From NCBI GenBank assembly GCA_963845755.1, contig CAWJTV010000020.1, positions 448,001 to 512,000 on the forward strand: DNA of 64,000 nt, written 5' to 3'. This DNA comes from an uncultured Planctomycetota bacterium. GTDB taxonomy: Bacteria > Planctomycetota > Planctomycetia > Isosphaerales > Isosphaeraceae. A model generated the notes under the pieces. The model saw only the letters and a program-made list of their open reading frames with translations. It was not told where the DNA came from and did not search any database. The position numbers and the translations under genes were made by a program. The first letter of the stretch is position 1. The number at the start of each line of letters is the position of its first letter. Positions 12,186-49,864 of this stretch are shown one piece after another.

Positions 12186-13727
<1,542 letters not shown>

Positions 13728-14352
13728 ATCCGCCACTCCTCCAACGCGACACGCGTCAAATCTCGTATCGACCTTGTAGGCCGTCGCGCCCTGGAAACTC
13801 TGAATAAAGAGTTTTCAAGAGGTTTCGCGAGCTGCACGACCAGGAACGTCCCACGAGAGATTCAAGAGATGGTCCCGACTCCCGGCGTTGCGAAGAAATC
13901 ATCCTGGACCGTGCTAATCTCATCGAACCATCCCGCCTCTCCGAGCCTCCGACAAGTCCGGCGGGAGATGCTCGGATCTAGTAATGATGTATGTTTTATC
14001 TATCAATGATAATCTATCCTCCTGAGGTAGGTAATCAACCACGAGAACCGACTGCGCGTACGCGACTGTGAACTCTCTCGTCGGTCGCCAGGACGCGATC
14101 TGGCTCCCCTCGTCGATGACGAAGAGTTCCAACCTCGGTCCTCTCGATTCGTTGGCGCCGTGATGGAGCGAGCCCATCGCTCTGGCCTCCGGGGATCGCT
14201 CCGGGCTCGCCGAATGACGAGTGGATGGCGTATCGCGGCGTGACGCTGTTAGAATCAGCCCGTGATTATCGGAGTTGTGGAGCGACGTCCTTCCCGCTGT
14301 CATCTTTCGGATGGACAATGGTTTCGCATTCGGAAGGAAAGCAGGATTGTAC

Positions 14353-15081
14353 ATGAAGACTAACCGATGGTTTTCTCGTGGGCTCGGATTCTTGATGGGA
14401 ATGACCGTCACCGTCCTGGGATCGAGTCCCGCCCGGGCTCAGTGGGGCATGGGAGGTGGTATGGGCTGGGGCATGGGAGGTTTTTACCAGGCGCCCTCTC
14501 CGACAAACCTCTTGAACCAGCATGCTCTCACTCGTGCCGCCGCGGGCCGAGCAGAGCGGCCTTCGCACGGCGCCTATCGGAACAATCCCAACTCCTACAT
14601 CAATCGCGTTCGCGATAATGGATTCGTCCCACACTACGATGTCCGGCGGCACCAGCCGCCCGCCTATCAGCCGCGACCGACCGCATCGCTGGGTAATACC
14701 GGACGGGTAGATTCTGGGGCCACGGCCGCTCCGCAGCCCATCTTGCCGCTGTCGAGTTTTTTCGATGCATCACAACGTCTCGTGTGGCCGACCGACTCTC
14801 CCAACGATGGGGACTTAGGAGAGAAGCGAACGATTTCCGACCAGAACACCCTGGCCGTCCTCCAGGAGAAGAAGCAGCGAAGTACGGCTTCGATTGCCAT
14901 TGTGACGGAGGCGCGGCAGAAGCTGCTCGACTATGGCCGGCCTGCGCTCCGAGCGCTGAGGGAGACCTCCACGCCGCGCATCGCGGACTCGTTCCACGTC
15001 TTCCTTCTGTCTCTCTACGATTCGCTCGCTCAAGCCGCCTTGCCGCCCGCACCCGGTGGCAGTTCCGCTCCCAACCCCTGA
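14353..15081 (+). CDS. Secreted hypothetical protein
   Basis: Signal peptide ending PARA|QWGMGGGMGWG; ORF 14275..15081. Confidence 0.7.
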   Translation: MKTNRWFSRGLGFLMGMTVTVLGSSPARAQWGMGGGMGWGMGGFYQAPSPTNLLNQHALTRAAAGRAERPSHGAYRNNPNSYINRVRDNGFVPHYDVRRHQPPAYQPRPTASLGNTGRVDSGATAAPQPILPLSSFFDASQRLVWPTDSPNDGDLGEKRTISDQNTLAVLQEKKQRSTASIAIVTEARQKLLDYGRPALRALRETSTPRIADSFHVFLLSLYDSLAQAALPPAPGGSSAPNP

Positions 15082-15140: not shown

Positions 15141-16214
15141 TCATTCGCCGACTGCGCGGGCGATCGTCGGTTCGAGGTTCTTGGGCACCAGGTCAATGGA
15201 GGCAACCTTTCCATCCCTGGCGATGAGGATGTTCGCCGGGATTTCGGTCACGCCGTAAGCCTTGGCATAGTCCTTCTCCCCCAGACCGTTGATTAGCGTG
15301 GGCCAGCGCACATTCTGGTCGAGCAGAAATCGACGGACGTTGGGCAGCACGGTCTCCAGCTTCTGTCCTTCGTCCTGCGCTGCGTCTAGATTGATGCCCA
15401 CGATCCGCAGTCCCCGCTCTCGATAGGACACTTCCACAGCTTGCAACGCCTCGATCTCGGCGGCACAGGGCAAGCACCAACTCGCCCAGAAGACAACCAG
15501 AACGACCTTCCCCTTCATATCGGCGACGCCGAACGGTTTGCCATCAAGATCGGCTCCTTGGATCACCGGTGCGGGCTGGCCCACCAGCTCTAGTCGTCTG
15601 AGACGAGTGGACAAGAATTCCTTGAGGACGGGACGTTGCGTGTGCCCGAGCACAATCTGGAGGGCCTTGCGTGCGGTGTCGAACCGGGCATTCTGGATCA
15701 GCCGCTGATAGTAGGCATCGCAAATTGTCATAATCTCGTCGGTCGGCAGTTCGGCCCGAGGAGCTCCGCGCTCAGCGGCCTTCTCTCGTTCGGCAACGAT
15801 GTGCTGAAGGGTCTCGAGAGACAGGTCGTAGTCCCCGCGGTCGGCCTCGGCGATCATCTTGACCAGAACGGCGAGCGCCGTAGCGGTCGGCGATGCGCTA
15901 CCGCCGCTCAGCACGCTCTTCGCGGACGGCTCCGCCTCGCGGAACAGATTGCCGGCGATCGCCAGTCGAAAGAGTTGTTCGTAGGTCGCAACGGCGTCCG
16001 CGGCGTTCTGGCGGGCCGCTAGTTGTTCGAGACGCTCCAGTCGCCGACGATCGAGCAGGAGTAATTGTTGATTGTAATCATCATTGATCGCCTTGATGCT
16101 TTCGTCGGGTGCGGACGCCGCCGTCTGCTTCTTGGCTTCCTGCCCCATGGCCGTGACCGTCAAGCCAATACACGCCAGAATCCCGGCTCTCGCGATGATG
16201 CGACGACATCTCAT
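15141..16214 (-). CDS. TlpA/ResA-like thioredoxin-fold disulfide reductase with helical N-terminus
   Basis: GKVVLVVFWASWCLPC, YGVTEIPANILIARDG; N-terminal signal peptide. Confidence 0.88.
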   Translation of the reverse strand: MRCRRIIARAGILACIGLTVTAMGQEAKKQTAASAPDESIKAINDDYNQQLLLLDRRRLERLEQLAARQNAADAVATYEQLFRLAIAGNLFREAEPSAKSVLSGGSASPTATALAVLVKMIAEADRGDYDLSLETLQHIVAEREKAAERGAPRAELPTDEIMTICDAYYQRLIQNARFDTARKALQIVLGHTQRPVLKEFLSTRLRRLELVGQPAPVIQGADLDGKPFGVADMKGKVVLVVFWASWCLPCAAEIEALQAVEVSYRERGLRIVGINLDAAQDEGQKLETVLPNVRRFLLDQNVRWPTLINGLGEKDYAKAYGVTEIPANILIARDGKVASIDLVPKNLEPTIARAVGE

Positions 16215-16911
16215 CTCGGTCGATCCTCCTCGAATGGGGCGTTCTAGAAGCAGTCCTGGCAAATCGCGGCGATCGATTTGGACTTATCTTGGTTGCTATG
16301 AGTGGTCGATCGTCCCCATCGTCGGGATGCCGCGAGATCGTCTCGAGCGGTCGAGTTCACTCGGTCCTCATTGTGCCATCTCGATCTGGACAAGGGTAGG
16401 GACAAGGGCGAACGGAGATCGCAGCAGCCGTTCATCGTGGTCGAGACCCGGCCGTCGAGGAACGCATCGTAACAGGGCGGCCCCTTCCCCAAGCGAACTT
16501 AGGCCACGATCAGAGCCACGAGGCAAATGCAATTGTGGGAAAACGTCTTACCAGTTATCTTCCGACACCTCGATGAGACACGCAATGGTGCGTCTGGAGG
16601 ATCCGGGGTCGGCCCAATTCGAGGTGAGAGTGGGGCTGATGGGATCATGGTCTCGTGGTCGAAGATGATCGACGAGAAGAACGACTCGCGATGTCCTCCG
16701 GGTGCACGCGGTGACGATGCTGGCTTTCACGATCGGCAGGTTTTCGAGGCGTTGCGGGAAGTCATTTTGGATAGGGATGTTATGTTCTTACAATCCTTTC
16801 ATTGCTTTAGGTGCTCTTAATAAGGCACTGAGGGTTCTGCGGAGTCATGCTCGAGAGCGAGGCCGATCGATGTGGACGGCACAACCGTCCGGCGGCAGGA
16901 GCTGAACACGC

Positions 16912-18630
16912 GTGCGACGACCCATAAGCTGGACAAGCCTTTGGGAATCGCTACTCGGCTTGTTCGCTGTCCTGGTCGTCTTCTGCCCGAGCGCCCTGTC
17001 TCAGGATCTTCCCCCGGCGATTCCCCCCTCACCAGCGGCGCCGGGTCCGAGGATCCCATCCGGTCCATCCCCATCCGCACCGATCTCTGTGGAGCAACTC
17101 GCAGAGCGGCTTCGAATGATGGAGGAAATGAACAGGAAGCTCGCCGCGCAACTTGAGGAGGCCAACAAGGCGCATGACGAGGAGATGAAGGAATTACGCG
17201 CGAGATTCGCGGAGCTGTCGAATCGGCTAAGCATCGGAGAGAAGGGCGGGGGAGGGATAAGCGATCCCGTCGGAACGGCCCCGCGGAGGGCCGACGTCCC
17301 GGGGGCCGACCCCGACTCGCCCGTGCCGGACTACACGGAAGGGCAGTTCTTCCCCAACTCACCCGCACCGGGATACTCACTCGCGAAGGTCTCCGGTACC
17401 CGCGGGTTGCCCCTGAGGGGCACCTTCGGGCCCGGCTTCCAGTTCGAGACCGAGGATGAGGAATTTCGGCTTCAAGTCCACCTGGAGTCCCAGATCGAGG
17501 GACGGATGTGGCGTCAGGCCGACCAGATCCCGGCCAATAGCGGCCTCTTCTTGCCCCGCCAGCGGATCTTCTTCAACGGCAACATCACCAAGAACATCGA
17601 GTACGAGTTTTCGATCAACCGAGGGTTGGGCGGCACGATCAACATTCTCAACGCCTATATCAACTTGCATCTCGACGACCGTTTCGAGATCCGCTTTGGG
17701 CGATTCTTCACGCCGCTGACCTACGACCAGTACGCGATCTCGAATTACTGGCTGCCGACGCCCGAGCGTTCGGTGTTCACGACCAACGTCGGCCTGGGCC
17801 GCCAGATCGGGCTGATGGGCTGGGGTTACCTCTTCGACAAGCGGCTCGACTACGCCGCCGGGATCTTCAACGGCTCGCGGAATTCGTTCGAGAGTCTCAG
17901 CAATGGTGTCGATGTCGTCGCGTTCCTCAACGCGAGGCCGTTCCAGCAGTCGGAGACGCTGAGGTTTGCCAGATTCCTCAACCTTGGCACCTCGGTCGCG
18001 TTCGGCTATCAGGACCAGCCGCCGGTGCCCGTGTCGTTCCGCATCGGCGGGGGGTCCCCGAATGGCGACGTCCCCGGGGCCGGCACGACGCCGTTCCTCA
18101 TCCTCAACCCCGGCGTGATCGAGCGGGGCGACCGGTTGCTTGGATCCGTCCATTCGGCCTACTTTTACAAGAGCCTGTCGCTGCTCGGCGAGTGGCAATA
18201 CGGCTACGGCAGCTATGCGTTTCTCAACAGCCCGTCGGCGGTCCAGGTGCCCTACATGGGCTTCTATGTCGCGGGTGGCTATTTCCTGACCGGCGAGCAC
18301 GTCGAGCAACGAAGCCGGCTCTATCCGAATCGGTCCTTGTTCCCGACCAAACGAGGAGATCCACGCGGTCCGGGTGCCTGGGAGATGGTCGGGCGCGTCG
18401 GAGAACTTCGCCTCGGCGAGAAGATCTTCACCGAGGGGTTCGCCGATCCGAACCTCTGGTCCAATCAGGCCATAACGACCGAACTGGGCATGAACTGGTA
18501 CTGGAACGAATATATAAAAATGTATATGTTTTGGCTGCATGGCGACTTCGGCGAGGCGGTCCAGTACCGACCGGGCGGGTTTCAGAAGACCGCCGATATG
18601 TTCTGGTTGAGGTTCCAGCTCTATTTCTGA
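16912..18630 (+). CDS. OprO/OprP-like (phosphate-selective porin family) outer-membrane protein
   Basis: Signal peptide, coiled coil, R.RIFFNG, NILNAYINL, GRQIG.M.WG, GFYV..GYFLTGEH, GAWE...R, C-terminal RFQLYF. Confidence 0.85.
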   Translation: MRRPISWTSLWESLLGLFAVLVVFCPSALSQDLPPAIPPSPAAPGPRIPSGPSPSAPISVEQLAERLRMMEEMNRKLAAQLEEANKAHDEEMKELRARFAELSNRLSIGEKGGGGISDPVGTAPRRADVPGADPDSPVPDYTEGQFFPNSPAPGYSLAKVSGTRGLPLRGTFGPGFQFETEDEEFRLQVHLESQIEGRMWRQADQIPANSGLFLPRQRIFFNGNITKNIEYEFSINRGLGGTINILNAYINLHLDDRFEIRFGRFFTPLTYDQYAISNYWLPTPERSVFTTNVGLGRQIGLMGWGYLFDKRLDYAAGIFNGSRNSFESLSNGVDVVAFLNARPFQQSETLRFARFLNLGTSVAFGYQDQPPVPVSFRIGGGSPNGDVPGAGTTPFLILNPGVIERGDRLLGSVHSAYFYKSLSLLGEWQYGYGSYAFLNSPSAVQVPYMGFYVAGGYFLTGEHVEQRSRLYPNRSLFPTKRGDPRGPGAWEMVGRVGELRLGEKIFTEGFADPNLWSNQAITTELGMNWYWNEYIKMYMFWLHGDFGEAVQYRPGGFQKTADMFWLRFQLYF

Positions 18631-18907
18631 GGCGGGCGATCAGCAATTGTCGAGGAGCGAGTCCTGGATGACCGAGCGACATTTCGGACACTTTGTTAGT
18701 GACTTCGGATTTCGCGGAATTTGGGGGGATTGCTGGATACTGGGCGAATTGTCAGCATCGTAGCACCTCATGCGCCGCGGCCTTCCCGTGAAATTGCGAT
18801 CGCCCTTCGACCTCGCGGAGTTGCCGGAGCGTCGCAGGCTGCGCTCGCGGGTCCATTCGATCGGGCGACCCACCGAGCCCGAAGCGCCGTTCCTGGAAGG
18901 ATGAGTC

Positions 18908-19624
18908 ATGCGATCACCGTATCGTTCGTCTCGCCGCGAGTTCGTGCGGCTCACCGGGCTGGCAGCCGGCGTGGCCGGTCTGAGTTCTGGATTGACCGGG
19001 GAGGCTGCCGTCCAGCCACCTGCGGCCCGCGATCCCGCCGCCGTGCTCGCCCGGTTGCTCGAGGGAAACCAGCGGTTCGTCGAAGGGAAGCTCACCCACC
19101 CGGGGCGGAAGCCGGAAGACTTCGCGGCGCTGGCGGAGGGGCAGGCGCCCCTCGCTGCCATCGTTGCGTGTGCGGACTCGCGAGTGGCTCCCGAACTGCT
19201 CTTCGACCAAGGGGTCGGCGACCTGTTCGTGGTCCGCGTGGCGGGGAACATCGTCAGCGGCGCGGGACCGAGTGTGAAGGGGAGCATCGAGTTCGCGGTC
19301 GCAGAGCTGGGCGTCCGACTGATCATGGTCCTCGGCCACTCGGCGTGCGGCGCGGTCAAGGCCGCCGTTGCTCACATCGACGCCAACGACGTGCTGCCCG
19401 GCTCCATCCGCGAACTCGTAGAGCTCATCCGGCCAGCCGCCGCCTCGGTGCGAGGAAAATCCGGTGACAAGCTCGACAACGCCATCAAGGCCAACGTGGC
19501 GCTGGGTGTTGAGCGGCTCAAAGGCCTGGATCCCATACTAGCCGAGAAGGCCAGGAGCAGAGAGCTGAAGGTGGTCGGCGCCGTCTACGACCTGCGCGCG
19601 GGCCTGGTCACCTTGCTCGACTGA
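18908..19624 (+). CDS. Beta-class carbonic anhydrase, Tat-exported
   Basis: SRREFV Tat motif; LLEGNQRF, CADSRV.PE, GDLFVVRVAGN, LGHSACGAV zinc ligands. Confidence 0.95.
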   Translation: MRSPYRSSRREFVRLTGLAAGVAGLSSGLTGEAAVQPPAARDPAAVLARLLEGNQRFVEGKLTHPGRKPEDFAALAEGQAPLAAIVACADSRVAPELLFDQGVGDLFVVRVAGNIVSGAGPSVKGSIEFAVAELGVRLIMVLGHSACGAVKAAVAHIDANDVLPGSIRELVELIRPAAASVRGKSGDKLDNAIKANVALGVERLKGLDPILAEKARSRELKVVGAVYDLRAGLVTLLD

Positions 19625-19675
19625 ATCTGCTGAACGGGCACAGTCTGTCAAGGAGGATCCCGGGGACTTCCATCG

Positions 19676-20224
19676 ATGACAGACGTTATGCGGATTCTCT
19701 CGTCAATCGGGCAAGGAGGACCCGAGTCGGCGGATCAGTTGCTGCCGTTGGTCTACGAGGAACTCCGTCAACTCGCCGTTCAGAGGCTGAGACTCGAGTC
19801 GCCCGGTCAAACGCTCCAGCCAACTGCGTTGGTACATGAAGCCTACTTGCGGCTGGTGGATGTCGAGAACGCCCAGGTCTGGAACGGCCGCCGTCACTTC
19901 TTCGCCGCGGCGGCCGAGGCGATGCGGCGCATCCTGGTCGAGTCTGCACGGCGCAAGACCAGTCTGAAGCGGGGGGGGCGGCTGCGCCGAGTCGACCTTG
20001 TCGACCAAGCCGCCTCTGACCCGGACGAGGACCTCCTCGCTCTTGACGAGGCTCTCAACCGGCTGATGATCGAAGACCCGATCGCGGCCCGGGTGGTCGA
20101 ACTTCGCCAGTTCGCCGGCCTGGGACACGAGGAGATCGCGGTCACCCTCGGCATTACCGTGTACCTCGCCCGCCAGAAATGGACCTACGCCCGGGCCTGG
20201 CTCCGCAACACCCTCGGGAGCTGA
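19676..20224 (+). CDS. ECF sigma factor, TIGR02999 type
   Basis: LLPLVYEELR, TLQPTALVHEAYLRL, HFFAAAAEAMRRIL, W.YARAWL. Confidence 0.92.
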   Translation: MTDVMRILSSIGQGGPESADQLLPLVYEELRQLAVQRLRLESPGQTLQPTALVHEAYLRLVDVENAQVWNGRRHFFAAAAEAMRRILVESARRKTSLKRGGRLRRVDLVDQAASDPDEDLLALDEALNRLMIEDPIAARVVELRQFAGLGHEEIAVTLGITVYLARQKWTYARAWLRNTLGS

Positions 20225-20300
20225 GGAATTTTTCAGATTCTTCGACAGTTTCGGCAACGGAATGCGCACTGAAGGATGAAGCCGATGAGCGGAGCATCCT

Positions 20301-23300
20301 ATGCCAATCGACCCGAAACGCGTGCAGGCCATCTTCCTGGCGGCGGTTGAACATCAGGACCCCGCCGATCGCGCTGCGATTCTGGACCGTGAATGCTCGA
20401 CCGATTCGGAGTTGCGGCAAAGCGTTGAGGCACTCCTGCGGTCTCACGACGAACCGGATAGCTTCCTCGATCAGCCGTTCGTCGATCACGCCGACCGGTC
20501 GTGGGTCAACATTGTTCGACGCGATGGGGGCGCCGCACCGAAACCGATTGCCAATTCGCCCCACAATAGCACCCCCGCTCAACCCCGCGAGCCGGCGCCG
20601 GGCGTTACCGACAAGACAGCCGCCCCACTTCTGATCGCGGAGGTGGCCGGGAATCATATCGGCCCCTACAAGCTGCTCCAAAAGATCGGCGAGGGGGGCA
20701 TGGGCGCGGTCTACATGGCCGAGCAAGAGACGCCGGTCCGACGACGGGTCGCGCTCAAGATCATCAGACCTGGAATGGATAGCGAGCCAGTCATCGCCCG
20801 GTTCGAGGCCGAGCGCCAGGCCCTGGCCATGATGGATCATCAGAACATCGCACGCGTGCTCGAGGTGGGGACGACCGCCACCGGCCGGCCCTTCTTCGTC
20901 ATGGAGCTGGTGCATGGAGTGTCGATCACGGAGTATTGCAACCGGAGCCAGCTCACGACGAAGGAGCGTCTCGAACTCTTCATCCCCGTATGTCAGGCGA
21001 TTCAACACGCCCACCAGAACGGGATCATCCACCGTGACATCAAGCCCTCGAATATCCTGGTTACCCTCTACGACGGGAAGCCCGTCGCCAAGGTGATCGA
21101 TTTCGGCGTCGCCAAGGCGATCGAGCAACGACTGACCGAACGGACTTTGTTCACGCAATACGGGACGATCGTTGGCACGTTCGAATACATGAGTCCCGAG
21201 CAGGCGGAGATGAGCGCACTCTCCGTTGACACTCGCAGTGATATCTACTCGCTGGGAGTCCTCTTGTATGAATTGCTGACAGGGACCACGCCGTTAGAAC
21301 GACAAACGATGATCGGGTCGGCCTATTCGGAGATCCTGCGCCGCATCCGCGAGGAGGAGCCTCCCAAGCCCAGCTCCCGATTGAAGGAGTCGAGGGAGAC
21401 ACTTCCCGCGATCTCAACCCAACGCAAGACGGAACCGGCGCGGCTGACGAAGCTGATGCGAGGCGAGCTGGATTGGATCGTGATGAAGGCACTCGAGAAG
21501 GATCGGACCCGTCGCTATGAAACGGCGAGCGGGTTCGGTCGCGACATCCAACGATTCCTGGACGGCGAAGTCGTCAGTGCCTGCCCGCCATCGGCTGCCT
21601 ACCGGCTCCGGAAGTTCGCCCGGAGGAATTACGCGGCGCTCGTGACCGTTGCTCTGTTCGTGGTGCTCTTGCTCGTCGGGGCCGTGCTCAGCATCTGGCA
21701 GGCGACCCGGGCCACGAAGGCGGAAGCCGTGGCGATCCGTCAGGCCGAACGCGCGATCGCCGCGGAGGAGCAATCACGGCTCGAGCGCGATCGGGCTCTG
21801 GTGGCCGAGGTCCAGGCGAAGGCCGAGAGTGAGAAGGCCAGGCGGTCGGCGGCCGAGGCGCGCAGCGTCCTCAGCTTTTTCCAGGACCACGTCCTGTCGG
21901 CCCCGCGCCCGGAGGGCATGGAAGGGGCGCTTGGCAAGGACGTGACCATCCGCAAGGCGCTCGACGCCTCGGAGCCGAAGATTGCGGCCGCGTTCCCCGG
22001 CCAGCCGGGTATCGAGGCGGAGGTGCGGACGGTCCTGGGCGACACGTATTACTACCTGGGAGAGCCGGCGGTCGCGCGTACGACAGCGGGAACGGGTCCT
22101 TGCGCTTCGATCGACCGAACTCGGTCCGGACCATCCCGATACCATGAAGTCCCGGACAAGTTTGGCCCTGGCCTACTGGGCCGCCGGCCAAGTGGATCGG
22201 GCCATACCCATGCTCGAGCGCACGGTGCCGGAGCAGGCGGCTAGGCTCGGCCCGGACCATCCCGATACGCTCACCAGCCAGAATCATCTCGCGCTGCTCT
22301 ATCAGGCTACGAGCGCGTTTGACCGTTCAATTGCGCTGCTCGAACGGACTGTAAGGGCACGCCGGACCGTCCTTGGGGCCGACCACCCCGACACACTCCT
22401 GAGCCAGTCCTATCTGGCCAATTCCTATCGCGTTGCCGGCTACCTCGATCGTGCCTTGCCATTGATCAAGCAAACCGTGGAGGCTCAATCATCCAGGTTG
22501 GGGGGCGACCACCCCGATACGATCACGGCCCGGAACACCCTCGCCAACGTCTACCGCGACATGGGTCAGTATGACAAGGCCATCCCGATCGCGGAGAAGA
22601 CGCTGGCGATGGGAGTACCCAAGCTTGGCCCGGAACACCCCAGGCTTCTCATCACCTTGAGTCTCCTGGCGATGTCTTATCAGGCGAGCGGATGGTTGGA
22701 CCGATCGATCCCACTCTTCCAGCGCGCGGTGGCGGTCCAGTCGGCCCGGATCGGTCCTGACCATCCGGAGACCCTCAGCACGCAGACCCGCCTCGCCTCG
22801 GCCTACAGAGACATCGGGCGGCATGACCTCGCGCTCACGATCCTCGAGAAGGCCGTACCGACGCTGGCGGCGAAATTGGGTCGGGAGAACATCAGGACCT
22901 TGATCGCCATGAACATCCTCGCCGACACCTATCGGTGCGCCGGTCAGTGGGATCGCTCGATCTCGCTCCTGGAGCGAAATCTCGTGGACCTATCGGCCAA
23001 GCTTGGTCCGGACCATGCTGAGACGCTCATCGCCCAGGACTACCTGGCCAAGGCTTATTGCGACGCCCGCCGGCACGAGCAGGCGCTTCCATTGCTGGAG
23101 CGCAATCTGGCCATGCGGATGGCCAAGCTCGGGGCCGACCATCCCGCCACCCTGGCGACGCGCCTCGATCTGGGGGAAGCGTTGCAAATGCGGGGCGACT
23201 TCACCAGGGCCGAGTTAACGTTCCGCGAGGCTCACGCCGTACTCATTGAGAAACTGGGTCCCCACCACCCCGAGGTCGCCCGGGCACTCATCGCAATGGC

Positions 23301-23649
23301 TCGCGGACTTCTGAGGTCGCGGAAGTGGGCCGAGGCCGAACGCCTGCTCGACAACGCCCTGGCCATCCTGGACGAGCGGTGCCCCGATCATTGGACACGG
23401 TTCAATGTCCAGAGCCTGCTGGGCCAGAGCCTGCTGGGCCAGGGAAGATTTGCCGAGGCCGAACCGCGTCTCGTCGCCGGTTTCGAGGGCCTCATCGCCC
23501 GCGAGGCGAGGATCCCGGCGTCGGGAAAAACCGACTTGACCGAGGCTGGCGAGCGGACCGTGAAGCTCTACGAAGCCTGGGGAAAGCCTGAGAAGGCCGC
23601 GGCGTGGCGTGCCAAGCTGGTCCCGCCGCCCACCCGGGCCGCACAGTAA
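20301..23649 (+). CDS. Ser/Thr protein kinase with TM helix and TPR repeats (frameshift near 22075)
   Basis: IGEGGMG.VY, VALK, HRDIKPSN, DFG, YMSPEQ; repeated LG.DHPDTL TPR units in 21982..23649. Confidence 0.92.
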
Positions 23650-23790
23650 TCGGTGGGGCCACGGCCCCATCCGCATTGGCTTGAGATGAACACACTGGAG
23701 GTGCCGGCGATTCACCGGAATCGCTCGCAGCGCAATGACGCCGAATTCTGCTCAGGACTCCTCATATGAACGTCTCACGGAGACACGCAC

Positions 23791-24780
23791 ATGGATTCAC
23801 TCACCTCGACCGATGCGAACGTGAATGCGACGCGACCACGCGCACTTCCATGGCCGGTGGTCGATGTTCCGGCCCCGGTGCTGGCGGTGTTCCGGGGCAT
23901 CGGGCAAGTCTTCTTCCAGGAGAACGCCCTGACGGGTGCTCTCTTCACACTAGGGATAGCCATAAGCTCACCCCTGATGGCGGTCGGTGCGGTCGTCGGG
24001 TCGGCGATCGGCACAGCAACGGGTTGGGTCCTGAAGCTCGACAAATCGGAGGGTCTCGCCGGGATCTACGGCTTTAACTCCGCACTGGTCGGGATCGCCA
24101 CGCTCTTCTTCTTCCGCCCGGGGACGACGAGTATCGGCCTGCTCATCGTCGGCTGCGTCGTGGCGGCGCTGGTGACCTGCCTGGCGCGGCGATACGTGCC
24201 TTTCCCGACGTACACCGCGCCGTTCATCGTGACCACCTGGGCGCTGTTTTTCCTCGGGCAGGCACTGGGGGCGACCCGTGCCGATCCGGGGGGGCTCTGG
24301 AAGGAGTCGGCATCCTCGGGTCGGTCGCGCACGGAGTCAGCCAGGTCATGTTCCAGGCGAGCATCTGGACGGCGCTGCTGTTCCTCGTCGGCATCGCCCT
24401 GAGCGACTGGAAGCACGCGTCATGGGTCCTGCTGGCATCGGCCCTCGGCATGCTGTTGGGGAGCTACCATGTGACCGCCGCGGTGAGGGCTCTCGACCCC
24501 GAAAGCCTGGTCGATCGCTCGCCTATTCGAGAACGTCGCCTTGGGACTGTACGGTTACAACGCGACGCTGGCGGCCGTCGCCCTGTTCCTCTGGAGGCGG
24601 TCGTTCATCGCTCCCTTGTTGGGCATTCTTCTCTCGGTCCCGCTCACCGAGCTGATCCCGCTCGTCGGGCTGCCCGCCCTGACCGCACCGTTCGTCCTTG
24701 CGACGTGGCTGGTCCTGGCGTTCGGCTGGCTCGAGAGACGGCTTCTCGGCAAGAGCAGCACAATATCGGCGACGGGATGA
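23791..24780 (+). CDS. Urea transporter (UT/Yut family), copy 1 (frameshifts near 24300 and 24525)
   Basis: RGIGQVFFQEN, GIYGFNSALVG, PTYTAPF, GLYGYNATL, LPALTAPF; directly upstream of ureA. Confidence 0.9.
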
Positions 24781-24853
24781 AATGCCGTCAGGCTGCCACC
24801 CGGCGCCCGGTCGTGAACGTCTTCCGTATTCCCCGTCCCTTGGAGTTTGATCC

Positions 24854-25156
24854 ATGAATCTGTCACCGCAAGAGCGAGACAAGGCGCTGATCTACGTGAT
24901 CGGCCAGGTTGCCAAGGACCGCAAACGGCGCGGCCTGAAGCTCAACGTCCCCGAGGCCACGGCCTTGATCACAGCCGAGCTCCTGGAGCTGGCACGGGAC
25001 GGCAAGTCCGTTGCCGAGATCATGGCTGCCGGCCGCGAAATCCTCAAGCGTAGCGACGTCATGGAGGGCGTCCCGGAGATGATCGCGATGATCCAGGTCG
25101 AGCCGACCTTCCGCGACGGCAGCAAGCTGGTCACGATCCACGACCCGATCCGTTGA
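24854..25156 (+). CDS. ureA: Urease gamma subunit, copy 1
   Basis: [10 protein letters not shown]...RGLKLN.PEA...ARDGKSVAE...DVMEGVPEM...[19 protein letters not shown]. Confidence 0.97.
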
Positions 25157-25203
25157 CGGTCGGCGCTAGTTCTTGATACCCGCAATTCCTGGGAGGCAGA
25201 ACC

Positions 25204-25581
25204 ATGATTCCTGGCGAGTTCTTGTTCGACAAACCCGACCTCGAGCTCAACGCGGGCCGTCCCGTCGTCACGCTCACCGTCAACAATACGGGGGACCGGC
25301 CGGTTCAGATCGGTGCCCATTACCACTTCTTCGAGGTCAACAGGGCCCTGATCTTCGACCGGGTGAAGGCGTACGGCATGCGGCTCGACCTGCCGAGCGG
25401 CACGTCCGCACGGTTCGAGCCCGGCGACACCAAGGAAGTCCGTCTGATCCCCTACAGCGGCCGCCGGGTGGTGTACGGGTTCAATGCCCTGGTCAGCGGC
25501 CGGCTGGACGACCCTCACACCCGCGAGACCAGTCTGAAGCGATGCCTCGATCAGAAATATGGCCATAAACCATCCCAGTGA
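25204..25581 (+). CDS. ureB: Urease beta subunit, copy 1
   Basis: [39 protein letters not shown]. Confidence 0.97.
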
Positions 25582-25635
25582 CACGGCGGACCTCACGATC
25601 GTATCCCATTCCGAACAACCCGAGGGCACCGACCC

Positions 25636-27357
25636 ATGAGCGTGAAACTCTCGCGAAAAGCCTACGCCAAGAAGTACGGCCCAACGGTCGGCGACCGCAT
25701 CCGGCTGGCCGACACCGAGCTGATCATCGAGATCGAGCACGACTACACCGACTACGGCGAGGAATCGATCTTCGGCGGCGGAAAGTCGATCCGTGACGGG
25801 CAGGATCAATGCCCGATCGAAGATGTGATGGGTCCCGAACACTGCGACCTGGTCATCACCAACGCCGTGATCATCGACCACTGGGGGATTGTCAAGGGTG
25901 ACATCGGCATTCGAGGCGGCCGCATCGTGGCGGTCGGCAAGTCTGGGAACCCGCTGACGCAATCCGGTGTTGACCCGAGGCTGGTCATCGGGCCGGGCAC
26001 CGAAATCATTGCGGGCGAGGGCAAGATCTGTACGGCGGGTGGCATCGACACCCACATCCACTTCATCTGCCCGCAGCAGATCGAGGTCGCCATCGCCAGC
26101 GGCATTACCACACTGATCGGCGGTGGAACCGGATCGGCGACGGGGACCTGGGCAACAACCTGCACGCCCGGCCCGTGGAACATCATGCGAATGCTCCAGG
26201 CATTCGAAGGGCTGGCGATCAACGTGGGGATCCTCGGCAAGGGCAACGGCAGCGTGCCGAGGCCCCTGTGCAAGCAAATCGAGGCCGGAGCCTGCGGGCT
26301 GAAGCTCCACGAGGACTGGGGCACCACACCCGCCGTGATCGACACCAGCTTGTCAGTGGCCGACGAATACGACATTCAGATCGCCATCCACACCGACACG
26401 CTCAACGAGTCGGGTTTCATCGACGATTCGATCGCGGCGATCAAGGGGCGGGCAATTCACAGCTTCCACACCGAGGGTGCCGGCGGCGGCCATGCCCCGG
26501 ACATCATCAAGATCGCCGGGCTGCCCAACGTGCTCCCCTCGAGCACGAACCCCACTCGCCCGTTCACCGTCAACACGATCGACGAGCATCTCGACATGCT
26601 GATGGTCTGCCATCACCTGTCGCGGGACATTCCCGAGGACGTGGCGTTCGCCGAGAGCCGCATCCGGGCCGAGACCATCGGCGCCGAGGACGTCTTCCAC
26701 GACCGCGGCATCATCAGCATGATGAGCTCGGACTCACAAGCGATGGGCCGTATCGGCGAGGCGATCGTCCGGTGCTGGCAGACGGCCCACAAGATGAAAG
26801 TGCAGCTCGGCCCCCTGGCCGGCGACAGCTCGCGCAACGACAACGAGCGCGTCAAGCGGTACGTCGCCAAATACACGATCAACCCGGCGGTCACGCATGG
26901 CATCGCCCAGCACGTCGGGAGTATCGAGGGCGGCAAACTGGCCGACCTGGTGCTGTACGAGCCGGCGAACTTCGGTGTGAAACCCTTCCTGATCCTCAAG
27001 GGAGGCCTCATCGTCGCCGCCCAGATGGGCGACCCCAACGCCAGCATCGCCACGCCGCAGCCCGTGTACATGCGACCTCAGTTCGCCGCCTACGGCCGGG
27101 CGCTGTCCAAGTCCTGTCTGAGCTTCGTCTCGAAGGTCTCGCTGGACAAGGGGATCGTCGATCGCTACGGCCTCGAGCGCGAGGTCGTGGCCGTCGAGAA
27201 CTGCCGTGACATCGGCAAGAAGGACATGCATCGTAACGAGGCAACTCCTGAGATCCGCGTGGACCCGGACACCTACCAGGTCTGGGTCAACGGCGAGAAG
27301 GTCAGCAGCGAACCGCTCGAGGAGCTGCCGATGTCTCAACTTTACTTCGTATTCTGA
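25636..27357 (+). CDS. ureC: Urease alpha subunit, copy 1
   Basis: [53 protein letters not shown]; all Ni ligands present. Confidence 0.98.
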
Positions 27358-27425
27358 AACGACGTCGCCGCGCCGGCGGGGATGCCTACCGCCGGTGCCT
27401 CCTCAGGTCGAGACCGCAGATTTCA

Positions 27426-28106
27426 ATGAATCTCCACTTGCTTCAGCTTGCCGATTCGGCCCTCCCGATCGGCGGCTATACTCACTCCTGGGGGTTGGAG
27501 GCGGCGATCGCTCAAAGGCGAGTCCGCGACCCCGCGACCCTGGAGCGATGGACAGTTCGTTGGCTACGAACCTGCCTGGGGCCGCTCGAGGGTGTGCTCG
27601 TCGCCTCGGCTTGCCGTGCGGCCCGCGCAGGCAAGCCCTTCGATCTACGAGCTCTGAATCACCTTGCCGAAGCATCGATCATTCCCCCCTCGATACGCAC
27701 AGCCAGTCGAGAGATGGGCGAGCAACTCCTGGCTTTGGGGGCGACGTGGGCCTGGTGTGCCGCGGGGCTTGCGCCGTTCCTGCCGGAGGGAACCGACGAA
27801 TCTGACGGCTGGCACCACCCGATCTCGTTCGGCCTGCTCGGGGCACTCGCGGGTGGCGATCCCGAGGACGTGGTGACGGCCTACCTGCACCAGGCGGCGC
27901 TGGGAATGATCGGCGCCGGGGTCCGCGCCATCCCTGTCGGTCACACGCATGGCCAGCAAGTGCTGGCCTATCTTCACGACGAGATTGAAAGCCTGACTCA
28001 GGAAATCCAAGGCCGCGAGCCGGAGACGGCCGGCGCCGGCTGCCCCTTCTACGAGATCCTTTGCGATGACCAAACTCGACTTTATGCTCGGATGTTCCGC
28101 TCTTGA
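27426..28106 (+). CDS. ureF: Urease accessory protein UreF, copy 1
   Basis: [22 protein letters not shown]-terminal YARMFRS. Confidence 0.95.
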
Positions 28107-28119
28107 CGATCGGTCGGAC

Positions 28120-28860
28120 ATGCTGGGATGGTGCCCTGGACGCCATCGCCGGCGCTTCCGGGCGGGTGTTGTCTTCCACAAGGACCACGGCCACTCCCAC
28201 GACCACATGGGCAGGGCCGGCCCCGCTCGCTACGCGGGGCCCACGCGAAAGGTCTATACCCTCGGTGTGGCCGGCCCGGTGGGCTCGGGCAAGACCGCGC
28301 TGGTGGAGATGCTCTGCCGCGCTCTCTGGCCGGAGGTCAACCTTGCCGTCATCACCAACGACATCTACACCCACGAGGATGCCGAGTTCCTCTCGCGGCG
28401 CGAGGTGCTGCCGGTGGAGCGGATCGTCGGCGTCCAGACCGGCGGTTGCCCACACACGGCCATCCGCGACGACGCCAGCGCCAATCTGAGCGCCGTGGCG
28501 AATTTTCAGCGTCAGTTTCCCGGTCTCGAGCTGGTCCTGGTCGAGTCGGGCGGCGACAACCTCACAGCCGTCTTCTCGCGCGAGCTGGCCGACCGCTTTA
28601 TCTTCGTCATCGACGTGGCCGAGGGGGACAAGATCCCCCGCAAGGGAGGGCCGGGCATTTGCAACAGCGACTTGCTGGTCATCAACAAGATCGACCTGGC
28701 CCCGCACGTCGGGGCCGACCTGGACGTCATGCGACGCGACAGCCTGAAGATGCGGGGCGAGCGGCCGTTCCTCATGGTCAGCCTTCGGCAGAAGGAAGGG
28801 ATCGCGGAGGTCATCCGGTGGGTTCGCGAGCAGTTCGCATCACGCGCGACGAGCTCGTGA
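28120..28860 (+). CDS. ureG: Urease accessory GTPase UreG with His-rich N-terminus, copy 1
   Basis: [46 protein letters not shown] extension. Confidence 0.96.
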
Positions 28861-29761
28861 CGCCGCCCGAGTTCCGGGGCCTGCACCCGACCGGGCACCA
28901 GGCCGCGCGGGTCGGTGGCGCACGCATCGAGCTCGTCCGCGTCGGCGACGAGACCCGCCTGGGGACTTGCTACCAGCAGGTCCCCGTCCGCCTGATGCCG
29001 CCGTTCGTCCTGGACTCGGAGCCAGCATCCTTGCTGTACCTGATCAACCTCACTGCCGGCCTGATGGATGGCGACGGCCACTGCGTCGAGATCACGGCGC
29101 GGGCGGGCACGCAGGCCGTCGTGACCGGCCAGTCAGCCACCCGGATTCATCCGGCCGTGGCCAGTTACGCAACCCAGCAATGGACCATCGAGGTCGAGGA
29201 CGATGCGTGTTTGGTCGTCCTGCCGGGACCGGCGATCCCGTTCCGAGGTAGCCGCTATTATCAGCGCGGCCGCGTCGAGCTCGCCCCCCGCACCGGTTGA
29301 TCTGGGGCGACATCTGGCTGGCAGGTCGCTACGACCGCGGCGAGCTGTCGGAGCGGTTCCAGTTCGATCGGATTGTCCAGGACTTCGAGGTCCGTCGCGC
29401 GGACCAACTGGTGTATCGGGATCGCTTCCGATGGGACGGCCCCTGGACCTCGGAGGACGCCGACTGGTTCTTCGGCGGCGCCCTCGCCTCGGCCAGCCTG
29501 TTCATCGCCGGGCCGGTGTCGGAGCCCGTTGCCGAGGTCGGCCCGACCCTGCGGCGTTCGGTCTTTCGGCTCGGCAATGGCGAATGGTGCATTCGATGGT
29601 GCGGCCACCCGTCGGCCGTCACGACCGACCTCGTGCATCACGCGTTGCGGCTGGCTGCGAGCTCGACCGACGGCTACGAGGCCCATCCCTGGCTGCTTGC
29701 GTCGTCCGGCCTTGCCCCCAACCACTGGTTCTCGACACCGGTAGAAAAATCAGGGGAGTGA
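28818..29761 (+). CDS. ureD: Urease accessory protein UreD/UreH, copy 1 (frameshift near 29290)
   Basis: GTG start [48 protein letters not shown]. Confidence 0.9.
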
Positions 29762-43412: not shown

Positions 43413-44885
43413 TCAGAACTTGACCAGGAAGCTAATCCCACCGCTCAACTGGCTGCGATGTGTGTGCTCGCCGTTTACCCCGAAGGCATTTTGGCCTGCG
43501 AAGTCACCGCGGATCTCCGGCCGAATCTCAAGGTATTTGATGGGATGCCAGTTGAGGCCCAGAGTCACCTCTTCATAGTTGGTGTTGATTCCGGTTCGCG
43601 TTCCGTTGACATCGTCGAACCACTCGGCGCGAAAGTTGGTGTCGAGCGTGGGGATCAAGTGGTAGATGCCGATGGTATAAAGGCCATACCACGATCCGGT
43701 GCCGACCGGAGTGTTGGCGTCCCAGCCCATGTTATTCTGGATGATTTGAGTGAACCGTTCGGTCCAGTTCTGCTGGAGTCGCAGTTCCACCATCGTGACG
43801 AAATCGCCCGCCAGATTAGGAGCGGCGAAAATGGCGTTCGGACCGGCATAGACCGAGGCCGTCAACCGTGTCTTCCTGGCGTCCGTCACCCAGTAGTTGA
43901 CCTGACCGATGTAGCAGATCGAGCGGGAGCTTCGCTGAACGAAAAACGTGTTGGCACCCAGGGTCATCCCATTCCAGATGTCCAGCCGATTGGAGACGTG
44001 GAGGTCGGTCAACCAGCCGGTGAAGGCACCGTCCTGCGAGTAGAAAAACTGGTAGTCGCTGGAGTAGAAGGGCCGGTAGGGGGCGAGGAATCCGTTGTAA
44101 CCGATGATCGTGTTCATGCGGCCGATCTTGAAGTCCACCCCGCCCTCGGTGAGGATTGGAAGGTGGGCCGAGAGGTACAGGTCGCGGAAATCCTGGCCGA
44201 AGTGGGGGTTGGGTGAAGAGTCGATGCCGCCCTTAGGCGCGCCCAGGGCCGCGTCGGCACCGGCGAAATACCGCATCATGAAACCGAGATTGAAGACGTC
44301 CTGCTGGAGCGGCTTCTCGATCACCCATCCAATCTGGTTAAGCAAGAACTCGTTGCCGAATCGGTTCTGACGGGTCTCGACCGAGAGGATTCCCGTTCCG
44401 GTCAACGCTCCGGTGTAGCCACCCTCGACCCAGCCGAATGATCGGATGCCGGTGTTGCCGAAGAGGTCTCCCAAACGGAGATAGTCCATCAGGAAGTTTA
44501 CCTGTGAGACAGGCGTCGCACCCAGCCGAAAGTTGGGGGACACCTGGGAGATGTCTTCCTGCATTTCTCCGGGGAGCGATTCCGCCTCCAGGCCGGTGCT
44601 GGGCGTAGTCTGACCTGGACTTGCGGTGATCGGCGGGGGGCCGACAACGCCCGTTACGGGCTGCGAGAGCTCCTCGCCAGGCGGCGGCGTCTCCGGGTCA
44701 GGCTGCGGCATTTCCGATCCCGACTGCGGGACAAACGATCGGGGCGGTGGGATTACCGGTCGCGCGTCGGGGATCTCCTGGGCATCGACGGCAACCGACC
44801 CAATCAGCAGGGCCGCGAGGCCCACGCTGACGAGGAATATGCATCTCGTCACGTCAAACCTCCACAGTATGCGCCACATCAGCAT
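43413..44885 (-). CDS. Outer-membrane beta-barrel protein (BBP2-like porin)
   Basis: FGWVEGGYT, LYLSAHLPILTEGGVDFKIGR..TIIGY, RAEWFDD.NGTRTG, IRPEIR.D; C-terminal F. Confidence 0.85.
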   Translation of the reverse strand: MLMWRILWRFDVTRCIFLVSVGLAALLIGSVAVDAQEIPDARPVIPPPRSFVPQSGSEMPQPDPETPPPGEELSQPVTGVVGPPPITASPGQTTPSTGLEAESLPGEMQEDISQVSPNFRLGATPVSQVNFLMDYLRLGDLFGNTGIRSFGWVEGGYTGALTGTGILSVETRQNRFGNEFLLNQIGWVIEKPLQQDVFNLGFMMRYFAGADAALGAPKGGIDSSPNPHFGQDFRDLYLSAHLPILTEGGVDFKIGRMNTIIGYNGFLAPYRPFYSSDYQFFYSQDGAFTGWLTDLHVSNRLDIWNGMTLGANTFFVQRSSRSICYIGQVNYWVTDARKTRLTASVYAGPNAIFAAPNLAGDFVTMVELRLQQNWTERFTQIIQNNMGWDANTPVGTGSWYGLYTIGIYHLIPTLDTNFRAEWFDDVNGTRTGINTNYEEVTLGLNWHPIKYLEIRPEIRGDFAGQNAFGVNGEHTHRSQLSGGISFLVKF

Positions 44886-45246: not shown

Positions 45247-46191
45247 TCAGTGTTGTTCCGTTTGAACCGAGAACCAGTGGCTGGGGTTGAGGTGATAGCC
45301 GCCGGTGAGCCAGGGGCGCTGGCTGTTTCCGGAGGTCCAGACGGCGGCGCAGCTCAGCGCCGTGTCCACGACCGACGGCACGAGATCCGGAGCTGGCCCG
45401 CACCAACGGATCAGCGTATCACCTCGCTCCAGGCGGAGTACGGCTCGTTGGAGCGCAGGATTCTTTTCCGCGGCCAAGTCAGGAACTCCGCCGGAAATGA
45501 ACAGCCCGGCGCTCGCCGCCTCGTCTCCGTCCCCGACGAACCAGCGCGCGGTGGTCCGATCCCAGGGACCCTTCCATTGAAATCGATCGCGATAGACCAG
45601 GACGCCGTCGCGATGGACTTCGAGGTCCTGGAGGACCTGATCGAACTGATAGAACTCCGACTCATCGCCGCGGGAATAACGGCCCGGCAACCACATGTCG
45701 CCCCAGATCAGCCGTGCATCGCCTTCGAGCTCGATCCGGATTCGTTGATGATAGCGACAGCCCCGGAACGGAATCGTGGGGCCCGGCAGGATCACGAGCT
45801 GTGCTCCGGCCTCGACCCGGACGTTCCACTGCTGGGTCGCGAAGGAACCGAGTGCGGGATGGACCCGGTTGGCCGATTGTCCGGTCACCACCGCGGCCGA
45901 ACCCGCCTTGGCCTCGATCTCGACCAGGTGGCCGTCGCCATCCATCAGGCCGGCGGTGGGGAGCAGGAGATAAATCAAGGCGGCCGGTTCGCCCTTGAAA
46001 TTGAAGGCGGGCATGACTCGGAGGGGCACCTGCTGATAAGTGTGACCCAGGATCGTCTGGCCGCCTCGATCGACCAGGGTCAGGCTCACTCCTCCGATCT
46101 GACCGGCGGATCGCTCCGCCAGGTGATACGCCCGATATTCCGGAGGAATCAGGAAGTCTTGCGCTGTGATTCGAGTTGTTCGCGAACCCAT
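45247..46191 (-). CDS. ureD: UreD/UreH, copy 2
   Basis: [39 protein letters not shown]. Confidence 0.92.
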
Positions 46192-46949
46192 CGGATAACG
46201 TTCTCGACGCCATCGCCTCGACGGAGGCTGATGAGGTAATACGGACGGTCCCTTCGCATGGCGAGGCTGTCGCGCTTCATGACGTCGAGGTCCGCCCCGA
46301 CGTGGGGAGCCAGGTCGATCTTGTTGATGACGAGCAAATCGCTGGTGCAGATGCCCGGTCCGCCCTTGCGGGGGATCTTGTCGCCCTCGGCGACGTCGAT
46401 CACGAAGATGAAGACATCGGCCAGCTCGCGCGAGAAGACGGCCGTCAGATTGTCGCCGCCCGACTCGACGATCACCATCTCGAGGTCGGGGAACTGGCGT
46501 TCAAAGTTCCCGATCGCGCTGAGGTTGCTGCTGGCGTCATCGCGGATGGCCGTGTGCGGACAACCGCCGGTCTGGACCCCCACGATTCGCTCCAGGGGAA
46601 GCACCTTGCTGCGCGATAGGAACTCGGCGTCTTCGTGCGTATAGATATCGTTGGTGATGACCGCCAGGTTGACGGAGGGCCAGAGCTCGCGGCAAAGGCG
46701 TTCCACCAGCGCGGTCTTTCCCGAGCCGACCGGCCCGGCGACGCCGAGCGTGAACGTCTTGCGTCGAGAACCGGCGTAGCGGGCCGGACCAGGTCCCCCT
46801 TTGTAATCGTGCTGATGATCGTGATCGCCCTTGTGCGCCGGCACGACCGGAACGAACCGGGGGCGGCGTGAGGTCCGGAAGGGCCCGGGGCCAAGTAGAC
46901 CGTCGCCTTCACGACCGGAACAGGCGGGAATAAAGCTGTGTCTGTTCAT
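46149..46949 (-). CDS. ureG: UreG with His-rich N-terminus, copy 2 (start uncertain)
   Basis: [38 protein letters not shown] extension. Confidence 0.95.
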
Positions 46950-47595
46950 CGCAGAGTACCTCGTAGAAGGGGGAGCCACTGCCCGCCGTCTCCAGGTCGC
47001 GACCGTCGAAGTCGATGGCGAGCCGTCCTACGTCATCATGGAGATAGGCGAGGATCTGTTGGCCGTGGGTATGGCCTACGGGTAGAGCACGGACCCCCGC
47101 CCCGATGATACCCATGATCGTCTGGTGCAAATAAGACATGAGCGTCTCGAGCGACGAGGCACCGGCGACCGCCCCGAGCAGCCCGAAGGCGATCGCATGG
47201 TTCCACTTCGGCCCTCCATTGTCACGGCCGACCGATCGCTGAAACCGGTCGACGGCCGTCGCGCTCCAGACCCAACTGGATCCGAGTGACAGGAGCTGCT
47301 CGCCCATCTCGTGGCTGGCGGCCCGGATGGAGGGCGGAGCCAGTGACGCGCTTAGGATCTCATCGGCCCGGACGATCGCCGCGAGATCGTTGCCCGTCCA
47401 CGCGCGACAAACCACGCCGACCAGCACACCCTCCAGCGGCCCGATCACGTGGGTGAGCCAGTGACGCGCCCAGTTTTCCAGCGACGGCGCATCGTGCACC
47501 TCTCGACGCGCGACCGCGGCTTCCAATCCCCAGGAGTGAGTATATCCACCGATCGGTAGTGCCGAGTCGCTGAGCTGGAGGAGCCGAAGATTCAT
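46909..47595 (-). CDS. ureF: UreF, copy 2
   Basis: [25 protein letters not shown]...YSRLFRS. Confidence 0.95.
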
Positions 47596-47611
47596 GATCC
47601 GCACAGTCATT

Positions 47612-47667
47612 GTAGGGCGGGTGAAACCCGCCAATAAGCCGATACCGGTGGGTCTCACCCACCCGAC
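47612..47667. repeat. GTAG-family REP doublet between ureC and ureF (copy 2)
   Basis: GTAGGGCGGGTGAAACCCGCC ... GGTGGGTCTCACCCACCCGAC; similar to 1740..1798. Confidence 0.75.
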
Positions 47668-47697
47668 AACCGTTGAACTCGGCCCTCCCGATCGTTT

Positions 47698-49419: not shown

Positions 49420-49454
49420 GATGTGTTCCCCCGTGGTGGTCCGTCGATCGGATG

Positions 49455-49833
49455 TTACTTGGCGGGATTGTTACCGTATTTGCCGGCCGCGAGCCGTTCG
49501 AAGCGCCGCGGCGCGTACGGTCGGGTCGTCGAGCTGGCCATTGATCAGACCGTTCAGGCCGAAGACCCGGCGTTCGCCGTCGAACGGAACCAGCCGCACT
49601 TCCTTGACGTCGCCCGGCTCGAAGCGGATCGCGGTGCCCGAGAGCAGATCCAACCGCATCCCGTAGGCCTTCTCCCGATCGAAGACCAGCCCTGAATTGG
49701 CTTCGAAGAAGTGGTAGTGCGAGCCGACCTGGACCGGCCGGTCGCCGCTGTTGGTGACCTTGAGCGTCACGGTCGGCCGGCCGGGATTGATCTCGATCTC
49801 CGGCTTGTCGAAAACGTATTCCCCTGGGATCAT
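49455..49833 (-). CDS. ureB: Urease beta subunit, copy 2 (probable frameshift near 49495)
   Basis: [19 protein letters not shown]; alternative frame ends GKYGNNPAK*, matching copy 1 QKYGHKPSQ*. Confidence 0.95.
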
Positions 49834-49864
49834 GATCTGGCTCCTCTCATGGCGGATCCGGGAC

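Follow-up and report, generated by a model that had tools for sequence, protein, structure and literature searches.

Background

Acid acclimation in Helicobacter pylori relies on urease, a urea channel and a periplasmic carbonic anhydrase (CA) (PMC8017301), and channels of the UT family are encoded together with urease in the ure-yut genes of Yersinia and in the ure2 cluster of Brucella (ureABCEFGDT-nikKMLQO), one of two urease clusters in that genome (PMC2868824). Here we analyze a stretch of 64,000 nucleotides from an uncultured Planctomycetota bacterium (assembly GCA_963845755.1, contig CAWJTV010000020.1, positions 448,001 to 512,000), called the window in the following, which encodes a porin, a CA, a UT-family channel and urease in one cluster. 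An earlier note made from the sequence alone had read this cluster as an acid-acclimation or biomineralization module under the control of an extracytoplasmic function (ECF) sigma factor and a membrane kinase.

The cluster resembles the H. pylori system in its urea channel, cytoplasmic urease and predicted periplasmic CA, and the same NH4+/HCO3- chemistry is predicted. The H. pylori CA gene is not known to lie in the ure operon, whereas here all genes form a single locus with two porins, a three-subunit urease and no ureE, in a free-living soil host. Moreover, the H. pylori channel is UreI of the AmiS/UreI family and its CA belongs to the alpha class, while the channel of the window matches only the UT family (PF03253) and its CA is a beta-class enzyme with a twin-arginine translocation (Tat) signal. 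By analogy, the cluster likely works as acid acclimation does in H. pylori, yet it is not a member of that system because its channel is UT and not UreI and its CA is of the beta and not the alpha class. A urease-linked UT channel and two urease clusters in one genome are shared with Brucella, the former also with Yersinia, but here ureE and nik genes are missing from the cluster, CA and porins are added and the UT gene comes first. Its UreC stays below the PRK13309 cut-off, and against TIGR03441, an equivalog model with a cut-off of 274.6, intact UTs reach 144-187 bits.

The cluster is conserved, apparently undescribed and built from known parts. No description of it or of this gene combination was found in the literature searched; supplements and most subscription papers lay outside that search, and a prior mention is possible. 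The available portions of PMC9062700 contain no linked CA-urease locus. If the function proposed below is true, the chemistry known from H. pylori is built from other protein families in free-living soil bacteria, and its one-locus version, present in about a third of the genomes of this soil and peat family, bears on urea turnover in acid soils. The cluster also offers candidate testable functions for an OprP-fold pore without a phosphate site, for BBP2 porins and for beta-CAs with signal peptides.

Conservation in related genomes

The porin-CA-UT-urease run exceeds chance, and we regard the conserved cluster of an OprO/P-fold porin, a Tat-signal beta-CA, UT, ureABC-FGD and a convergent BBP2 porin as a real unit. 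Pfam and NCBIfam matches agree with the earlier description of one co-oriented run of porin, CA, ECF sigma factor, kinase, UT and urease, all on the plus strand (Table 1). The named genes thus stand, but the limits drawn around them had omitted the BBP2 porin, a redoxin pair on the left and a second urease operon. The urease metal-site motifs HIH, KLHEDWG, HTD, HTEG, CHH and SDSQ are present in the ureABC region.

The host genome comprises 14.3 Mb in 49 contigs and is 87.9% complete, with the window on contig C20. Isosphaeraceae are the closest named relatives for both its CA and its porin, and family f1, within which conservation was surveyed, probably corresponds to Isosphaeraceae as judged from sequence. 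All 121 genomes of this family were searched with a CA profile. Matches were obtained in 61, of which 49 above a score gap (at least 198 bits) were kept as orthologues; the other 12 genomes and weaker second CA matches were set aside as paralogues or fragments. From the sister family f5, 201 genomes were sampled, and the phylum sample comprised 401. Linkage counts for the porin, BBP2 and redoxin genes were tallied by hand. The genomes are kin and not independent, therefore these counts indicate conservation and not repeated origin.

The earlier note had proposed neighborhood conservation as its test, and the linkage of CA, UT, urease and porin holds. A UT gene follows 3' of the CA gene on the same strand at 42 of the 49 CA orthologues (32 within 600 bp, 10 within 12 kb), while seven are without. 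The CA gene is directly followed by ureA in G118, which has no UT at the site; G116 has remnants of UT and ureD, the CA locus of G015 ends at a contig edge and in G090 the operon is 34 kb away. The porin profile gave 43 matches in 42 genomes. The gene is immediately 5' of the CA gene in 27 cases; a distance of at most 25 kb separates it from CA in 37 and from CA or UT in 40. Orthologues of this porin are also encoded by cultured relatives. In 40 of 44 cases the BBP2 orthologue and UT share a contig and are no more than 25 kb apart; the remaining four orthologues are in fragmented assemblies. The BBP2 gene faces ureD directly in most relatives, and about 13.6 kb of other genes lie between them in the window. 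A redoxin gene occurs within 25 kb of 14 of the 49 CA orthologues, the redoxin family being present in 91 of the 121 genomes, and the hypothetical protein encoded beside it co-occurs with redoxin in 13 locus matches.

Beyond the family, CA was found in 5 and UT in 12 of the sampled f5 genomes. UT occurs in 12 of the 401 genomes of the phylum sample, 10 of them from one distant family, and two of these UT loci, when examined, gave no CA or urease match. A plasmid search returned only 5 distant UTs. Among the best 80 CA loci listed, six have UT or urease genes, all of them labelled as planctomycetes, and none represents the cluster outside planctomycetes. Tat beta-CAs with 68-70% identity are encoded in Nitrospira-labelled genomes and one unlabelled genome (L073, L075, L077, L079), for which horizontal transfer is possible; a sharing of the cluster by Nitrospira was considered and dropped, as the neighbors of these CA genes are unrelated.

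Such observations touch on the question whether CA, with the porin and the redoxin pair, could be a separate envelope module that joined urease once and then moved along as a block, uncoupled from it. In L249, L250, L251 and L254, CA is separated from urease yet has kept the redoxin pair beside it; close CAs in Nitrospira and other phyla have no urease in the flanks examined; and CA and UT each have sigma-70-like sites of their own in front of them (4 of 36 and 5 of 40 loci, respectively), again in non-independent kin. Against this, CA and UT have remained tight neighbors in many genera from two families, with sequences 55-80% identical and differing flanking genes, and in G118 the CA gene directly precedes ureA even though UT is gone from the site. 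We consider passive linkage unlikely.

The sigma-70-like sites (0.45 before CA and 0.52 before UT in shuffled sequences, maximum 3) suggest ordinary promoters before CA and UT in certain relatives, a group to which the window does not belong. Sigma-54-like sites were not enriched upstream of CA (0 of 36; 1.9 in shuffles) or UT (3 of 40; 1.7 in shuffles), and a promoter and terminator scan of the window stayed at chance level (1 versus 2.0 and 5 versus 7.9).

Table 1. Genes of the urea-use cluster and further features in the window.
Feature	Position	Strand	Remarks
Secreted-looking hypothetical protein	14275..15081	+	no Pfam match; accessory, recurrent neighbor of CA/porin
Redoxin (AhpC-TSA/Redoxin), signal peptide, WCLPC	15141..16262	-	accessory neighbor
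OprO/P-fold outer-membrane porin	16912..18630	+	PF07396; core
Beta-CA with twin-arginine signal	18908..19624	+	PF00484, 139.8 bits; core in family f1
ECF sigma factor, Thr50 in QPTA (LQPTALVHE)	19676..20224	+	TIGR02999, 194.6 bits versus cut-off 126.15; optional insert
Hanks Ser/Thr kinase, one transmembrane segment, TPR_12 repeats	20301..23649	+	frame break ~22078; optional insert
UT-family urea channel	23791..24780	+	PF03253; breaks ~24295 and ~24522 (three pieces); core
ureA	24854..25156	+	intact, above cut-off; core
ureB	25204..25581	+	intact, above cut-off; core
ureC	25636..27357	+	intact, above cut-off; core
ureF, His-rich ureG, ureD	27426..29761	+	ureD ~28818-29761, frame break ~29291; core
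BBP2 porin	43413..44885	-	PF07642; core
Second operon UT-ureABC-FGD	45247..51160	-	intact, without CA
Distant OprO/P-like porin and second BBP2 porin	51440..54882	+	OprO/P-like gene frame-broken, start approximate; divergent from second urease operon

Properties of the encoded proteins

The beta-CA residues C88, D90, R92, H144 and C147 (CxDxR, HxxC) are invariant in all 11 aligned orthologues, as are R9, R10 and F12 of the twin-arginine motif SRREF, which is accompanied by a hydrophobic stretch. Hence, the enzyme appears placed to act outside the cytoplasm, and we predict export by the Tat pathway and a periplasmic location. Its closest solved structure is Rv3588c (2a5v/1ym3), and two other beta-CAs are encoded in the genome.

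The channel matches dvUT (3k3f) with an E-value of 1e-49 in a profile comparison, and its structure matches are UT proteins. Most UTs of the first cluster type carry a charged insertion of 15 residues (DPExLxxR; 24470-24530 in the window, columns 240-258 of alignment A2), which may form a periplasmic loop and is a candidate pH sensor. We discarded the idea that this loop docks the CA, given its absence from the CA-adjacent UTs of L037, L042, L044, L239 and L246 and its presence in the CA-less clusters L259 and L261-L264.

A model of the OprO/P porin (pLDDT 74.9) had OprP (2o4v) as its best Foldseek match (E-value 4.3e-19, TM-score 0.68). The residues R34, Y62, D94, K121, S124, S125, K126 and R133 listed for the OprP phosphate site (PMC5877670) correspond to E, R, gap/L, Q, S, N, Y and R in the window porin, in a profile alignment that is weak in this region (E-value 0.76 alone). 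Thus, despite OprP being its best fold match, the porin differs from OprP/OprO in keeping only two of the eight residues, S124 and R133, and it is therefore probably not a phosphate pore. At each of these positions, 58-60 of 60 orthologues share the residue of the window porin. The porin remains with UT and urease where CA is absent (L259, L261, L263, L278), suggesting that the solute is urea or one of its products and not bicarbonate. A urea/amide porin, FmdC, has been named alongside OprO/P-annotated porins (PMC5877670) and, in comammox Nitrospira, together with urease (bioRxiv 10.1101/138586); the location of the window porin with urea genes resembles that of Methylophilus FmdC.

A proposed role in buffering the periplasm

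We propose that urea would enter the periplasm by way of the OprO/P-fold porin, the BBP2 porin or both, and would cross the inner membrane through the channel, a UT by family with the substrate expected from established UT biology. Cytoplasmic UreABC, matured by UreFGD, would then convert urea to 2 NH3 and CO2, for which the genes are present and the chemistry is established. Both products would diffuse outward, where the exported CA would hydrate CO2 to HCO3- and H+, and NH3 would become NH4+. Low or fluctuating pH in soil and peat would thereby be better tolerated, and the nitrogen gained would be a side benefit. In our judgement the chances are about even that the cluster, a conserved urea-use system, serves in this way, its predicted periplasmic CA pairing urease CO2 with NH3 to buffer the periplasm; by analogy, acid acclimation is plausible.

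Several observations favor buffering. The CA and UT genes are linked (42 of 49), as are the two porins; the CA is predicted to leave the cytoplasm, with two further beta-CAs encoded in the genome, and recapture of CO2 fits less well because a cytoplasmic CA would serve it better. The transporter is a passive channel and urtABCDE was not found in the genome, which has two UrtA-like matches below the cut-off, in a chemotaxis cluster and in a kinase fusion. The only AmtB gene lies on another contig and sigma-54-like sites are not enriched, both of which also argue for buffering. The same holds for the ion or pH transport genes that recur nearby in relatives, namely a SulP-beta-CA fusion (L032, L244), bestrophin (L242, L259, L261, L262) and a GntP-type permease in or beside the cluster and a Ca/cation exchanger within it (L241). 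A channel of the Yut/UreT kind serves acid resistance in Brucella (PMC2868824), the H. pylori mechanism provides a precedent (PMC8017301), and Singulisphaera isolates from peat are mildly acidophilic (PMC11279305).

The same chemistry could serve a different end. Porins and UT may import urea and amides for nitrogen scavenging, with the protons from the periplasmic CA trapping escaping NH3 as NH4+, to be taken up again, and limiting alkalinization while urea is hydrolyzed; survival in acid would then not be the purpose. Inserts of a formamidase gene (L163) and of an allophanate hydrolase gene with an isochorismatase-family gene (L240) fit this use, as does the FmdC precedent; with no ABC urea transporter found, UT may be the only route, and CAs like Rv3588c possibly act on the alkaline side. 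However, the cluster contains no AmtB and shows no enrichment of sigma-54 sites, scavenging is less to be expected of a passive channel than a high flux of urea, and an NtrB/C-like pair lies near the cluster in only one genus among those inspected (L032, L244, L245). No urea carboxylase scored above the cut-off in the genome. We consider nitrogen use with ammonium trapping possible, though less probable than buffering.

Urease and CA together drive carbonate precipitation in other bacteria, and the earlier note had allowed for such a role, with urease raising the pH and CA supplying carbonate for CaCO3 at the cell surface. This proposal finds almost no support. It could draw on the Ca/cation exchanger mentioned above, but this was seen in the cluster of a single relative, and no calcium-binding surface protein was recognized. 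Moreover, genera from peat and tundra are among the named cultured relatives, and the peat isolates of Singulisphaera are mildly acidophilic; carbonate does not precipitate under such conditions. Biomineralization is thus highly improbable.

Buffering of the periplasm, too, meets points that weigh against it, its support being gene context throughout. G083, G071 and G064 have the CA orthologue and no urease gene in the 14-20 kb examined. Conversely, five of the eight clusters of the window type in family f5 are without CA (three have it), as are those of G109 and G111, hence the cluster functions without CA. No NicO nickel transporter was matched in the genome, and the formamidase and allophanate hydrolase inserts rather fit nitrogen use. 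Rv3588c is off on the acid side, and an enzyme of this behavior would suit the countering of alkalinization and not of acid. A switch of Rv3588c between active and inactive states with pH has been described (PMC6834203), Yersinia Yut is not pH-gated (PMC2868824) and one forest-soil Singulisphaera is neutrophilic (PMC11279305).

As for the accessory genes of urea use, a UreE_N search of the 87.9% complete genome gave no match for ureE, and the cluster in the window has no nik genes; a genome-wide search for nikKMLQO was not made. One of the UrtA-like proteins (G000:C1:127721-129172, 464.7 bits, just under the cut-off) heads the chemotaxis-type cluster and possibly takes part in urea or amide sensing. 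Genes for a GntP-family permease (72-81% identical) are found at varying positions in or beside the cluster of relatives (L032:9013-10569, L038:14934-16445, L072, L074, L161, and further L241, L244, L260, L265, L035/L054 and L059), while the genome of the window has only a relative with 46% identity elsewhere.

The ECF sigma factor and kinase pair

Hanks kinases paired with ECF43 sigma factors are known from Vibrio (EcfP-PknT) and Xanthomonas (EcfK-PknS), and the ECF43 consensus has a QTTA-like motif with a conserved Thr in place of DAED (PMC13147305). The pair in the window agrees with them in QPTA with Thr50, at a site like T51 of EcfK, and in an adjacent Hanks kinase whose layout of kinase domain, transmembrane segment and predicted periplasmic TPR repeats is that of PknS (PMC13147305, PMC8999054, PMC8103513). 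It differs from the known pairs in having many more TPR repeats and in being one of 26 paralogues, as the genome holds 26 ECF loci of this type, 21 of them with a kinase within 1.5 kb downstream. Its profile match is to TIGR02999, which we take to correspond to ECF43. By analogy with EcfP and EcfK, the pair would act in the usual way, Thr50 being phosphorylated after a signal is perceived by the periplasmic TPR repeats.

The earlier note had made this control part of the module. Six of the 49 genomes, each from a different genus, have the pair directly after the CA gene, and it is missing from the CA-UT junction in the other 43, among them the same-genus genome G001 where CA and UT are 212 bp apart. 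It is, therefore, an optional insert in a minority of genomes, and what persists of the original interpretation is the conserved module of CA, UT, urease and porin without kinase-ECF control. The Thr in LQPTALVHE is present as claimed, but it says nothing about this locus because it matches the ECF43 consensus and is nearly universal among the ECF paralogues of the genome (in all but three of those shown); it is also found in the ECFs of all 11 relatives shown.

A tie to the cluster is nevertheless indicated in part. The five junction ECFs included in a tree group into a single clade (support 1.0), as is the case for their kinases (0.98). In the family-wide search, in which 28 ECF candidates per genome were scored, the top five matches all lie at the junction, while 14 of 22 (68-73% identical) lie elsewhere. 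Carriers of the pair are mixed with non-carriers on the urease tree, which is modestly supported. At seven further loci (L262, L265, L270, L161, L243, L246, L036) the cluster is flanked by other ECF/kinase pairs, but at about one such ECF per 550 kb in this genome, chance alone would produce a few independent neighbors. The sole indication of a link is that the pair has been retained in different genera, and with 43 of 49 loci lacking a pair at the junction, we consider it rather doubtful that the pair controls the cluster. Inspection of part of the upstream regions revealed no conserved ECF-type promoter, no formal motif discovery having been made, and a complex prediction for the TPR domain of the kinase with two CA copies scored 0.01 and was not used as evidence. 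Still, the cluster would be a first candidate for the regulon of such a pair in planctomycetes. One can also picture a single-locus machine spanning the envelope and turning urea into buffer, made of parts unrelated to those of Helicobacter: a dedicated neutral-solute OprP-fold porin, a UT gated by a clade-specific acidic loop in the periplasm, a Tat beta-CA and urease. It would confer acid acclimation on a large family of soil and peat planctomycetes and would be ECF43-controlled in several lineages; in this full form it is unlikely.

The flanking pairs are co-oriented upstream of the cluster in four loci (ECFs 51-57% identical) and divergent in two (64-70%), and the flanking ECF of L036 is of a different type. 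Within the window, a second, intact pair of an ECF43-type sigma factor and a TPR kinase from another clade is found at 38024-41449.

Frame breaks

The kinase, UT and ureD genes are frame-broken in the assembly, which the earlier note had not mentioned. Contigs near-identical to the window are present in the soil metagenome run X1. Its coverage includes the kinase and ureD breaks, where one contig each (depth about 3) has a one-base indel at 22078 and 29291, respectively, and the UT breaks (~24295 and ~24522) lie outside it. Intact kinase orthologues of 1132 and 1228 amino acids are encoded in L239 and L242, and UT is intact in many relatives. All these breaks are likely assembly errors. In view of the indels in X1 and the intact orthologues, we dropped the idea of a decaying operon. 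Split ureC matches were also seen in several relatives assembled in few contigs.

Further urease operons and neighboring genes

Both urease operons of the genome lie within the window. The UreC of the second is 78% identical to the first, and this operon forms a separate clade on the urease tree. Together with its porin pair (45247-54882), it is situated between a BBP2 porin and an ABC transporter. Because these two adjoin in G001 (L058), the second UT-urease operon was likely inserted later. L271-L275 hold a third type of UT-urease cluster, with ureE and a UreC of about 55% identity that passes PRK13309 in L275; four of these five loci have a divergent porin, and porins similar to those at 51440-54882 are divergent from UT in L271 and L273-L275. 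The number of UT genes rises to two or three in some genomes.

To the left of the cluster, the open reading frames at 10908-13727 are presumably csrA-like, fliW-like and thiC-like, named by their sequence appearance. At 33113-37445, a Ser/Thr kinase is followed in another frame by a cyclase-like/AAA/TPR reading frame, probably one frame-broken gene, a relative of which sits within the ECF insert of G012 (L044).

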